Below are positions 293 through 57,303 of a stretch of 64,000 nucleotides of DNA, piece by piece (position 1 is the first letter of the stretch; every line of letters starts with the position of its first letter). The notes under the pieces were generated by a model. The model was not told the DNA's origin, did not search any database, and saw only the letters and a program-made list of their open reading frames with translations. The DNA comes from Eledone cirrhosa (lineage: Eukaryota), in contig OZ024745.1 in assembly GCA_964016885.1 (NCBI GenBank), forward strand, positions 106,020,001 through 106,084,000. Direction: 5' to 3'. A program made the position numbers and the translations under genes.

Positions 293-379
293 CAACAAAG
301 AAGGTGTGGCAAGACATCAAGTGAATCATAACGCTCCAGAGTACTCGATATCCAGCCCTCGGGGCCCTGACTCTTTTCA
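293..379 (-). mobile_element. Isolated PLE 3'-tail fragment between (TA)n tracts
   Basis: Visibly similar to the reverse complement of the tail at 1423-1502 (cataacgctccagagtactcgata vs cataacgcaccaaagtactcaata) and flanked by (TA)n on both sides. Confidence 0.55.
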
Positions 380-420
380 TATATATATATATATATATAT
401 ATATATATATATATATATAT

Positions 421-831
421 AAAGACGTAAAATAAGAAAATAAAAAAAAATAAAAAAATTTTTTTAAATTAACTTACTTAAATGTTCACTCCAACTAATT
501 AGTTTCTGCAATGGGATAAAGACAGTTACGTAATCTAACTGTCAAGAATTCACTGCGTCATCAGGGAGTCTGATGACGCAATGAATTCTCGACAGTTAGA
601 TTACGTAACTGTCTTTATCCCATTGCAGAAACTAATTAGTTGGAGTGAACATTTAAGTAAGTTAATTTAAAAAAATTTTTTTTTTTTTTTTAATTTTCTT
701 ATTTTACGTCTTTTATATTATTGTTCTGCATCCTCCTGCATTGAACCACCTAGGTAGTATGACATAACCTGTGTATTTGCTGGCATTAGCGTACATCTGT
801 GTGCTTATGTTAGTAGATATATTAAATTATC
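421..831. mobile_element. Fold-back PLE-derived cassette with hammerhead
   Basis: Inverted arms 421-564 and 570-713 with few mismatches and a 5-nt spacer. The right arm continues as a unique tail to about 831. Flanked by TA tracts. Confidence 0.8.
488..569 (-). ncRNA. Type I hammerhead ribozyme
   Basis: Minus strand: ACTCC-CTGATGA-c-GCAGTG...CATTGC-a-GAAAC-taatta-GTT-GGAGT. Stem I ACTCC/GGAGT, palindromic stem III. The plus-arm copy (570-646) lacks the 5' strand of stem I. Confidence 0.8.
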
Positions 832-1028
832 TATATATATATATGTCAGTCTTCTGTCTTCCTGTCTGCCTGTCTATCTCTCTCACTCACTATCTGGCTC
901 TCTCTATCTCCCCCGTTATATATATATATATACACACACACACATACATACACACACACACACACACACACACACACACACACACACACACACACACACA
1001 TATATATATATATAGAGGAACCAGTAAG

Positions 1029-1122
1029 ACCCCGACGGCTGAGCTCAAGCCGTTTCGACGGCTAATTCTGGACTAAATGAAAATTTATCCTGGTATTTAA
1101 ATAGCCGAGCTTCTCAAGGGGT
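1029..1122 (-). ncRNA. Type I hammerhead ribozyme, U3-A8 core variant (mirror copy)
   Basis: Reverse complement of 1316-1409. Confidence 0.65.
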
Positions 1123-1315
1123 AATTCCATATATGGTCAAAGTGATTGTCAAGAGTCAGTAGTAATTCTGTGATTGCAAATTAGTAGGGGAGATGGTGGC
1201 TAAACCTGCCAGTAGGTGGCTAAACCTGGCAGGTTTAGCCACCATCTCCCCTACTAATTTGCAATCACAGAATTACTACTGACTCTTGACAATCACTTTG
1301 ACCATATATGGAATT

Positions 1316-1409
1316 ACCCCTTGAGAAGCTCGGCTATTTAAATACCAGGATAAATTTTCATTTAGTCCAGAATTAGCCGTCGAAACGGCTTGAGCTCAGC
1401 CGTCGGGGT
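1316..1409 (+). ncRNA. Type I hammerhead ribozyme, U3-A8 core variant
   Basis: ACCCC-TTGAGAA-g..CGGCTA...TAGCCG.c-GAAAC-GGCT-tgagctc-AGCC-GTC-GGGGT. All three stems pair and the cleavage triplet is GUC. Confidence 0.65.
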
Positions 1410-54850: not shown

Positions 54851-55271
54851 TGGGGCGTATGATCAGGGAGAGGAAGTAGGAAAGTCTGTAGTTACTAGCA
54901 ATGTTAGCTTCACAGACGTTGGTGGTCCTGTGACAGGGTCACTGCTCGTTTTATGGTCTTTTCGATGCCCATACAATGCTGGCACGTCATTGTTCCAGGC
55001 CTGGAAGTTCTTGGTAGACCAAAATTAAATAGAAAACATGAATGGAATAGCAACATCACAACTTACAATTAAGGACAAAATGAAAACACACCCACACATA
55101 GAACAAACAACTAACCAGTAACATGTAAATAAACAAATAAATAAACAATTATAAACACACACATACACCCGGAGGTAACACATGCGCAAACTAATCACAC
55201 AACACACACAAAAACAAGATGGCGTAGGATAGAACAAAGGAGAAGCACAACAACAAGGAAAAGAATCCCCG

Positions 55272-55314
55272 GTTACTGAAGAGGTCACATAATGTGTGAC
55301 GAAAGAACTTTGAC
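55272..55314 (+). ncRNA. Minimal hammerhead in the inverted pLTR
   Basis: GTTA-CTGAAGA-g-GTCACA-taatg-TGTGAC-GAAAG-aa-CTT-TGAC. Confidence 0.8.
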
Positions 55315-55467
55315 AATATATGAACAATCGTCTGGCTGTGGAACCAACCAACCAACCGGAAATTTATAAATTTAATTTATAATGAATTGAAGTGAAAGCA
55401 ACTGGTGTGTGTGTTTCTTATTGGCAACATGGCCCTCCCATAGCATAACAATATATATATATATATA

Positions 55468-55832
55468 TATTAAAATAACAGATTAACGTTTATGCAAAGA
55501 ATCGCTGCTTTCACCTTTAACGGGATCTTCTGAAACTAAAACAGTCAATATGTGAACGCAGAAGTAAATATTTCAAAAAACGTTGCAACCGAAGGAAGAC
55601 AGGAAGACGATACTTTGGTTTGTGGAAACGTTCCCTTGCAAAGAACGGAAAGAAACATTTACTGCGTTCACAGATTGACTTTTTAGTTCCAGAAGATCCC
55701 GTTAAGGGTGAAAGCAGCGATTCCTGGCTTAAATTTAATCTGTTATTTTAATAAATATTTGCTCTACGGTTCTTATATCTCTGATATATATTTATCCTTA
55801 TCGAGCCCTCTTTGGATTCTAGTTTTCAAATG
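55468..55832. mobile_element. Fold-back cassette with ~95-nt spacer and tail
   Basis: Imperfect inverted arms about 55468-55570 and 55667-55752, tail to 55832, (TA)n flanks. Confidence 0.75.
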
Positions 55833-56747
55833 TATTATATATATATATATATATATATATATATATGTGTGTGTGTGTGTGTGTATATATATGTGTGTGT
55901 GCGTGTGTGTGTGCATGGGATCCTACTCGTATATATATATATATATATATGAGTGGGATATTATGAGCCACCAGTAAGACGTTTTTAAATCTATTACAAA
56001 TAATATACCTGCAAGTAAAGCACGAGTGTTTAGAAAAAGGTAAGCTTGATTTGCGAATTGAATTAGACTTCACCGTAACTTTGACTAAGTAAAATAGTCT
56101 TATAATAAGTTATAAGACCACAGAAGATGAAAAGATGGACTTGAGTGCATATAGCAGTCCACCCTACACATCTTGTTTACTGGAAACGTGCGATTCCATT
56201 TACACCAATGCATCGACCCATATGCTTCCGTTAATTTAGAAGTCATAACTTAATAGCGATAGGTAAAGAAAGAATGCATATGTGTTTAGAAAGGGGGAAC
56301 AAAATAAAAAAAATGAATCGAAAACATTTGCCATAACCTTGAATAAATAAAAATTGAATCCTCGACTGTTGAACCTCAATTCTACCTTCACTACTCTACC
56401 ATCATAAAGAACTTCATAAAAAAAAAACATTATACGAAAAGAGATTTTGAAAGAAAATCCACAGAATATGAGAAAAGGCATTTTAAATATTTGAAACTGG
56501 TAATATTTGACAAGACTTAAATTCATTTAATATAGTAACTATAAAAATATTTATTCTGTCTGGTTAAAGAAAAGATAACCTTTAAATAAACTCATGTGGC
56601 TTTCCACTTTTAACCCACTCTCTCTATCTCTCTCTCTCACTCACTCTCTCTCTCTCTCTCCCCCTCTCTTTCTCTCTCTCTTTTCCCTCTCTCTCTCTAT
56701 GTATATATATATATATATATATATATATATATATATATATATATATT

Positions 56748-57303
56748 AGTGTATAGTGGAAGCTATGTTGCTTCTGTAGGCGGTATTCCAAAATTAGCAC
56801 TCGATATTCATCAGAGTAGAGTGTAGATATTATCAAGAAAATGAAAAATCAGTGATGCATCTGGATTGAGTTTATTTCGTGTTACAAATGTTTCGCCGGC
56901 ATGTAGCTCGAGTCATGGTCCTTGTATGGATCTGGCTGATTCTACTTCTGCGGGTTCTTTCAGACACGGGTGTTATGTCCGGAGCAAATTTTATCACTGG
57001 GGTGTTGTCATCAAAACAACCCATCAAAAAACCTTCTGTCCACTCTTGTCATGTCATTGGCTGTTTTTACTCCGCGTCATCACAAGGTCTGGTCAGTATC
57101 TGCTGCCACAGGGTTCATCAACCATTTCCCGTCCGACATATTTCAATGGTGTCATGCTGGGTTCAGTACTTCACACGTCTGCTCACACTTCAGAGTAAGC
57201 ACACACACATACTAATGACTCGAGCTACATGCCGGCGAAACATTTGTAACACGAAATAAACTAAGTCCAGATACATCACTGATTTTTCGTTTTCTTGATA
57301 ATA
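56748..57303. mobile_element. Fold-back cassette with ~300-nt spacer and tail
   Basis: Arms about 56827-56916 and 57215-57303, tail 56748-56826, (TA)n flanks. Confidence 0.8.
56878..56968 (-). ncRNA. Hammerhead-like motif with 1-nt core insertion
   Basis: CGTGT-CTGAAAGA-a-CCcGCA...TGCcGG-c-GAAAC-attt-GTA-ACACG. Confidence 0.55.

Follow-up and report, generated by a model that had tools for sequence, protein, structure and literature searches.

A bulged RNA hairpin in the tails of Penelope-like elements of Eledone cirrhosa recurs in Hydra-clade metagenome loci and lies close to element ends

The DNA analysed here, which we call the window, is a stretch of 64,000 nucleotides of the Eledone cirrhosa genome (GenBank assembly GCA_964016885.1, contig OZ024745.1, positions 106,020,001 to 106,084,000 of the forward strand), and all positions below are numbered within it. 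It contains units of Penelope-like elements (PLEs) that are set in (TA)n and carry a tail of ~60-85 nt at one end only. An inverted, 5'-truncated copy adjoins a direct copy in the units designated, by position, 1445, 341, 4061, 21221, 16350, 56797 and 55761; an inverted copy was looked for at the 34237 element and none was found. The anatomy given for endonuclease-containing (EN+) PLEs likewise combines a direct copy with an inverted truncated one and a tail at a single end, although the tails reported there, at 30-40 bp, are shorter than those of the window (PMC8557442).

A first-pass annotation of this stretch had pointed to a YGAGTR motif lying at a fixed distance of 41-60 nt from the 3' ends of otherwise unrelated hammerhead-bearing elements. 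We found all seven strings that it listed at their coordinates and on their strands, and the distance holds for each of them when it is taken from the (TA)n run or, for 21221, from the end that this unit has in common with 4061. As had also been claimed, the motif is not in the tail at 52630-52697. The elements are less unrelated than was supposed: 4061 and 21221 are near-identical and form one family, and 341 is a truncated member of the 1445 family, so that five independent families remain. Their description as hammerhead elements holds in part. Canonical-looking cores with stems are present at 16437-16478 and 34359-34395 and a compact one at 21285-21307; the core of 56797 is degenerate, that of 1445 doubtful, and the 341 fragment has none. 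No match to the Rfam hammerhead models was obtained in the window at E<=1, and the window against Rfam as a whole gave only sub-threshold matches driven by microsatellites.

The motif belongs to a bulged RNA hairpin of the PLE tails, RCUC-[variable stem-loop]-UU/UC/UA-GAGY-RCU, of which it forms the 3' arm. This hairpin has a lower helix of 4 bp (GCUC/GAGC, or ACUC/GAGU in the window) and, on the 3' side, a bulge of 2 nt; the upper helix starts with a Y-R pair and bears a free loop, and the RCU of the 3' flank is unpaired. The (C/T)ACTC noted before the motif is the 5' arm: it pairs with GAGT, the second helix lies between the two, and the TY before GAG is the bulge, so YGAGTR is one arm and not the unit itself. 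The pair adjacent to the bulge is U-A in three window families and C-G in two, and the window families use A-U where metagenome loci, described below, use G-C, with the exception of 55761.

The hairpin of the 1445 family lies at 1430-1456 (+), with ACTC at 1430-1433, an upper stem of 1434-1437 paired with 1444-1447, a TT bulge at 1448-1449 and GAGT at 1450-1453 followed by ACT. It belongs to an insertion unit in (TA)n at 1015-1501 (+), made up of an inverted tail-less copy (~1015-1219), a direct copy and a tail (~1425-1501). Among the variants listed from sequencing reads for this hairpin, changes fall in the loop (1440-1442) and the bulge (1449 T>C) and none in the stems. The same family supplies a mini-insertion at 292-378 (-), in which an inverted copy of 27 nt (352-378) is followed by a direct copy truncated within the hairpin, leaving the 3' arm only (341-351). 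In the 4061/21221 family the hairpins are at 4051-4072 (+), where the inverted copy stops 5 nt 5' of the hairpin, and at 21220-21241 (-); RNAfold fails to recover a hammerhead fold for the compact hammerhead-like core of the latter unit (21285-21307, -). At 16349-16371 (-) the first upper pair is C-G and the inverted copy again stops 5 nt 5' of the hairpin; the unit (16290-16748) has a hammerhead core with stem II at 16437-16478 (-). The hairpin at 34236-34278 (-) has an upper stem of 6 bp and a long loop and is present in the minimum free energy (MFE) fold, as are stems I and II of the hammerhead at 34359-34395 (-). That of the 56797 family is at 56796-56822 (-), and its inverted copy (57215-57307) stops 4 nt 5'.

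A hairpin of a sixth family, not listed in the first-pass annotation, was found at 55761-55809 (+). It is a GCTC...TC-GAGC variant with a long upper stem, and its model score is weak (E 0.29). Three tail-less copies of this family stop 7, 7 and 2 nt 5' of the hairpin, and the tail ends 33 nt past GAG. A further PLE-like family in (TA)n is represented at 55471-55835 (+), 42710-42822 (-), 57804-57874 (+), 58111-58293 (+) and 42365-42417 (+), the last being a stray tail fragment without a TA run; the hammerhead-like core reads CAGAAGA instead of CUGAAGA in all its copies.

How far does the window by itself support the motif? The 9-mer RTYGAGTRY occurs nine times in the window on both strands together and seven of these are the annotated sites; a post hoc count over 100 TA-run flanks places six sites at a distance of 40-79 nt, where 0.14 would be expected per 20-nt bin. 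There are 75 occurrences of the looser YGAGTR, eight of them in the 40-59 bin (1.2 expected). When the five window tails were shuffled, a shared degenerate hexamer appeared in 12 of 150 shuffles, and one with two or more fixed G/C positions in 1 of 150. We conclude that the case from the window alone is moderate, and that data from outside it make the motif secure.

These outside data are a set of at least 122 metagenome loci fetched with a degenerate pattern for the reverse transcriptase (RT) core of Hydra-clade PLEs, with no information on tails; 80 of them have long flanks. As the pattern fits four of the six consensi in PMC8557442, part of the clade may be over-represented. Not all loci are independent: L006 is on the same contig as L007 and L009 on that of L010, and L030/L071 and L032/L042 are the same families. 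The open reading frames (ORFs) average 48% identity (231 pairs, three near-duplicates included). Those of full length carry the N-terminal motifs RWK (14/14) and DKT/S (14/14) and never DKG (0/14), a CxCX5C linker precedes the C-terminal endonuclease in 19 of 20, and many loci with intact 3' ends have a hammerhead near that end and lie in (TA)n (for example L009, at its TA end, L010, L023, L066 and L073). Protein motifs, hammerhead and (TA)n targets match those given for the Hydra clade of C-terminal EN+ PLEs (PMC8557442), the clade to which we assign these loci on such features.

Among the 25 loci with a recognisable N-terminus, the hairpin is found within 260 nt upstream of it in 21 and within 120 nt in 17; the shuffled mean was 1.0 (maximum 5 in 300 shuffles), and ORF interiors gave 0.024 per 120 nt. 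Two or more descriptor matches are present in 11 of the 20 loci with at least 200 nt upstream, one of the three in L009 being a weak extra. Of 44 loci long enough to include the 5' untranslated region (UTR), 20 have a model match there; among the 24 matchless loci, 18 are without the N-terminal motif and their open frames are short, which is what truncation or decay would lead one to expect. The sense strand holds 52 of the 56 model matches, and the four antisense ones are parts of inverted copies or of elements nearby. The first-pass annotation had named a lack of positional enrichment in a larger set of tails as fatal to its proposal; enrichment was seen. Since the hairpin reads GCUC...GAGC outside this genome, YGAGTR is a local variant.

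Structure was assessed on 47 distinct locus instances chosen by sequence alone, which include two probable strays (L020 and L057). Upper pairs 1, 2 and 3 are formed in 45, 33 and 34 of the 47, against permutation means of 30.6, 19.9 and 19.2, and none of 20,000 permutations reached these values. Pair 1 is C-G in 27 instances and U-A in 16. The bulge is UU in 34, UA in eight, UC in four and UG in one; the 3' flank is ACU in 41 of 47, the base 5' of the helix is unconstrained, and loop lengths range from 6 nt to 17 nt or above. In 42 of 45 instances the lower helix is part of the MFE fold. MAFFT left the variable loop unaligned, and the first model was therefore built on 11 instances of equal length. 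The covariation score, calculated on a model-fitted alignment that leans toward structure, was 0.215 compared with 0.082 for shuffled and at most 0.071 for slid partners; neither this nor the pairing tests take kinship into account. None of the eight window tails had a significant z-score when folded singly (-1.84 to 0.29), and the MFE structures of several depart from the conserved hairpin. The lower helix is conserved in sequence besides pairing, which suggests that a protein reads it.

It can be seen in the full elements that the hairpin is present twice, as copies A and B, ~60 nt apart between the hammerhead and the start codon. In all 17 loci GAG of A lies 41-54 nt from the start of B, close to the annotated 41-60 nt, and B starts 23-68 nt before the next ATG (17/17). 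The spacers between A and B are barely more alike than shuffles (0.32 against 0.27, 13 spacers). Taken separately, the A copies (n=17) form pairs 1-3 in 17, 16 and 12 cases (p <5e-5, 1e-4 and 0.018), with pair 1 being C-G in eight, U-A in eight and G-C in one, and the B copies (n=16) form them in 16, 7 and 10 (p 0.007, 0.32 and 0.036). The loci L028 and L054 have a CTGATGA hammerhead half-core a few bases after hairpin A, in the A-B spacer. The order is unlike that of the other loci at L005:1731-1763 (-), where a hairpin follows a (TA)n run by 3 nt and precedes a hammerhead.

To map element ends independently of the hairpin, each 5' junction was compared with other copies in the same contig. 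All eight interpretable ends fall 2-8 nt 5' of A, giving a tail-less end, or of B, giving a tail-bearing end: before B by 3 nt (L009), 2 nt (L010) and 4 nt (L028, L072 and L061), and before A by 4 nt (L066), 5 nt (L017) and 8 nt (L021). A ninth end, in L042, was placed by eye 0-2 nt before B. We had set aside a tandem run-through (L006), six matches in TA runs, palindromes or internal repeats (three in L017, two in L021 and one in L031), three matches cut off by contig ends (L008, L070 and L026), and a 20-nt match of L075 that likewise stops at the end of its contig. Were ends uniform across the AT-rich UTRs, the chance of falling in the 2-8 nt band would be ~0.09 per end. Four families of the window have tail-less inverted copies that stop 7, 5, 5 and 4 nt 5' of A. 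Raw reads (run X20) covering 1225-1500 gave loose ends at 1424, 5 nt before ACTC (3532 reads), and at 1491/1498 (1464 and 1252 reads), and both end classes run into TA repeats; the consensus of the loose ends at 1410 and 1418 agrees with the 27-nt inverted copy in the 341 mini-insertion. Ends often lie at a UA-rich stretch that matches the (TA)n target. As ends form a few bases 5' of the hairpins, the 41-60 nt is the spacing from A to B, and the tail is A plus spacer. The fixed distance noted in the annotation is therefore there, but indirectly, as the spacing from hairpin A to a second copy B that is not carried into the insertion.

We also asked how the window sites fare with an out-of-sample score trained on 45 locus instances (L020 and L057 dropped). 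Five of the seven are among the top six in the window, with 0, 0.04, 0.21, 0.41 and 0.93 false matches per shuffled window; the 1445 hairpin is the top score (0 false, 100 shuffles), and the values 0.04 and 0.21 are those of 16349-16371 and 56796-56822. The site at 34278 is not significant, and 341 has no 5' arm to be scored.

The cis signal proposed in the annotation, conserved and tied to formation of the 3' end, is supported, although the hairpin is not common to all hammerhead-bearing PLEs. The element at 52620-55450 (-), used as a negative control, has RT, a CX4CxxC linker, endonuclease, hammerhead core, inverted copy and tail and no such hairpin. It is probably of Neptune type, judging by the linker as that type is defined in PMC8557442; its best protein match is labelled Octopus vulgaris (71% identical), and a third copy of its end is at 13070-13676 (+). 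Its RT-endonuclease frame is frameshifted, its inverted copy is at 55018-55444, and its tail of roughly 65 nt can be folded as one long stem-loop (z 0.15, not significant). A wider search for Neptune-type controls gave one locus in genome contigs, without an informative end, and none in viral contigs, so that specificity for the clade rests on this one family and on Naiad ends; the Hydra RT-core pattern likewise had no match in viral contigs. One bacterial metagenome-assembled contig (L123:1-2683) encodes a Neptune-like PLE protein and is probably animal host contamination. In the supplement of PMC8557442, 33 of 54 Naiad consensus 3' ends were read by eye and no hairpin was found near the end; the 3' UTR of Naiad_Mmer has one full match several hundred nt inside the consensus end, which by a rough estimate is compatible with chance. 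Among the Hydra consensi of that paper, again by eye, Hydra-2_Amil and Hydra-2_Ajap end with the hairpin (GCUC/GAGC), Hydra-1_Ajap starts with two copies, Hydra-1_Crog and Hydra-1_Amil have a deviant form, and Hydra-1_Obim has none.

We favour the explanation that the element protein binds the hairpin in the element RNA and that reverse transcription is initiated internally, immediately 5' of the hairpin. The RT-endonuclease would bind the hairpin and nick (TA)n, and the nicked end would pair with the UA-rich bases just 5' of the hairpin, where cDNA would start. A start at A would give a tail-less end and a start at B a tail-bearing one that carries A but not B. As the 3' end of such a new copy would be without B, a tail-bearing copy of the ORF would presumably need a tandem or circular template, and the 5' junction alone would yield copies of the size of the pseudo-long terminal repeat (pLTR) like those of the window. 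An anole Poseidon PLE studied in vitro starts at two internal sites that bound the tail, and requires RNA 3' of the starts (PMC11167929). With somewhat less assurance, we lean towards the broader proposal that Hydra-clade PLEs carry a duplicated, uncopied RNA anchor 3' of the template start and that this pair of anchors sets both PLE ends and the tail, in which case a protein dimer may hold both hairpins.

Several observations count against this explanation. End positions alone fit internal priming, RNA cutting and DNA cutting alike, and the inverted copy of the 21221 unit is an exception to the end rule, since it stops inside the hairpin, at a TA run in the loop. Only 12 of 17 A copies and 11 of 17 B copies have TAT or ATA in the 12 nt on their 5' side. 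Four of the 25 ORF starts have no full hairpin (L003, with half of one, L014, L031 and L062), and in L030/L071 it is degenerate only. The second upper pair is not above permutation in the B copies. The lower helix hardly varies among the loci (G-C in 46 of 48 rows), and its covariation therefore rests on the A-U pairs of the window, on L070 and on one published consensus read by eye; G-U against A-C combinations number only 5 to 2, which is weak evidence that the RNA strand is the one that matters. Within the window, the covariance model R1 (Infernal) scores all sites at E>1, and R2 finds 1435 (E 0.027), 55758 (E 0.29) and 16346 (E 1.1) and misses 4051, 21241, 34278, 56822 and 341. Lastly, the window families lack a link to an ORF. 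Hairpin-bearing copies contain no ORF remnant, as might be expected because they are 5'-truncated, and the sole adjacent fragment, directly after the 21221 tail end at 21042-21179 (-), is a C-terminal endonuclease piece of a Hydra-clade PLE (hidden Markov model from 22 locus ORFs, independent E-value 1.7e-7, model positions 659-705 of 710). We infer that these families belong to the Hydra clade from the shared hairpin, the (TA)n target and this fragment; by eye, we also saw 13 nt of the 4061 tail matched in the L034 spacer, directly past the hairpin.

A potential explanation that would not need to invoke internal priming is that the GIY-YIG endonuclease reads the hairpin as DNA, in single-stranded cDNA or an extruded donor strand, and cuts the TA-rich bases 2-8 nt away while resolving an intermediate, so that the ends are cuts. 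This predicts the same end positions and the weak G-U bias leaves room for a DNA strand; moreover, the tail has been ascribed to EN-mediated resolution (PMC8557442), and the endonuclease of Drosophila virilis Penelope needs the tail for recognition, as cited in PMC11167929. We nevertheless regard it as unlikely, as in the latter study tail boundaries coincide with RT starts on an RNA template, and the variation in loop length excludes a plain double-stranded site, leaving a single-stranded one. Improbable to a similar degree is a hairpin that directs formation of the RNA 3' end: the RNA would be cleaved or terminated a few bases 5' of the hairpin, and ordinary target-primed reverse transcription would then start at its new end. 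The same end positions are again predicted, and RNA-seq reads do end at tail boundaries (PMC11167929); yet the dominant product of the PLE tested in vitro, which is of another clade, was unchanged by 3' extensions and needed downstream RNA (PMC11167929), and the hairpin matches no ribozyme or processing family in Rfam.

The position of B close to the next ATG in every locus could also mean that the hairpins serve translation or transcription, as a 5' UTR operator or core promoter, with ends nearby merely because of the UA-rich bases, and PLE pLTRs do hold an internal promoter (PMC8557442). As the only role this is quite improbable: eight locus ends fall in the 2-8 nt band despite the UTRs being AT-rich throughout, and non-coding tail copies keep the stems in reads. 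A role in translation may, however, be added to that in setting ends. Chance, residual homology or a coding remnant (I/V-E-Y/C in one frame) is very improbable, and largely refuted by the blind enrichment, the covariation and the unconserved spacers, even though the window holds only five independent families and shuffled tails at times share a hexamer. The coding remnant we rejected separately: GAG keeps no constant frame with respect to the ORF, sharing it in 5 of 17 A copies and in 3 of 16 B copies. Also considered, from consensus sequences, were a splice site, a Pol III B box and pairing with a trans-acting RNA; all three were dropped once the 5' arm had explained the degeneracy.

Other features of the window may be noted briefly. 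A dispersed repeat of ~190 bp, SINE-like (short interspersed element) in size and not tied to TA runs, has at least ten copies of 80-95% identity, at 1623-1782, 5321-5512, 10753-10868, 29508-29696, 32154-32361, 33646-33842, 44391-44593, 51493-51688, 59044-59155 and 63909-63979. Beside the 341 fragment, at ~420-715, is a separate fold-back element with a central CTGATGA half-core, both arms of which end at the same site. An open frame at 46850-47281 (+) weakly matches a C2H2 zinc finger (E 7.6e-4, which does not reach the Pfam cut-off). The segments 18805-20068 and 30967-31222 contain a local duplication that is recent (100% identity over 228 and 195 bp) and an inverted repeat that is old (73%).

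The closest parallel that we found is the anole Poseidon PLE, in which the two internal starts that bound an optional tail lie at the pLTR-ORF junction and the targets are AT-rich; it is of another clade, however, and the portion of PMC11167929 consulted mentions, for one element, an 'AC-rich stem loop' but no signal that is conserved, whereas the signal here is a duplicated covarying hairpin in the 5' UTR. The consensi of PMC8557442 contain the hairpin unnamed: 'hairpin', 'stem-loop', 'stem loop' and 'bulge' do not occur in its main text, and its section 11 describes no such element. The words 'tail', 'hairpin' and 'stem' are likewise absent from the consulted part of bioRxiv 10.64898/2026.07.22.740005. 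No family reached the gathering threshold when the L010 junction was compared with Rfam, the one match being to a snoRNA (E 2.8). We found no description of the hairpin in the literature covered, outside which subscription papers, Repbase reports and bioRxiv supplements could hold a mention. The hairpin is real, is conserved far outside this genome and is apparently undescribed.

Other reverse transcriptases use RNA structures of related kinds. Stringent long interspersed elements (LINEs) and their SINEs have a small 3' stem-loop that is recognised by their own RT, lies 5' of the start, is copied, and has its specificity in the loop. By that definition the PLE hairpin falls outside the class, as the hairpin nearest each end lies 2-8 nt beyond it, 3' of the start, and is absent from the copy, and its conserved part is the bulged helix with RCU. 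The epsilon element of hepadnaviruses is a bulged stem-loop bound by RT that fixes where synthesis starts, its bulge templating a protein-primed oligonucleotide, and anchoring elements of telomerase RNA, also bound by RT, fix where synthesis starts. Compared with epsilon, ends here map outside the hairpin, and the proposed likeness to epsilon and telomerase RNA is one of function. By analogy, the hairpin may function like an RT-recognition stem-loop.

The hairpin bears on how PLEs choose the RT start and why a tail is present or absent, the sole in vitro study having found internal initiation and, in the part consulted, no conserved signal (PMC11167929). A covarying hairpin of 25-35 nt that predicts both ends to a few bases allows a direct mutational test. 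The hairpin can also serve as a marker when the ends of these elements, and their non-coding derivatives, are annotated, and would be a short portable signal if the enzyme were used to write RNA-templated DNA into (TA)n sites. The RTs of PLEs are the sister group of telomerase RTs (PMC8557442). If the proposal of a duplicated RNA anchor is true, it would give the retroelements closest to telomerase their first conserved initiation signal, and would offer a model for the origin of an RNA anchor beside an internal template.

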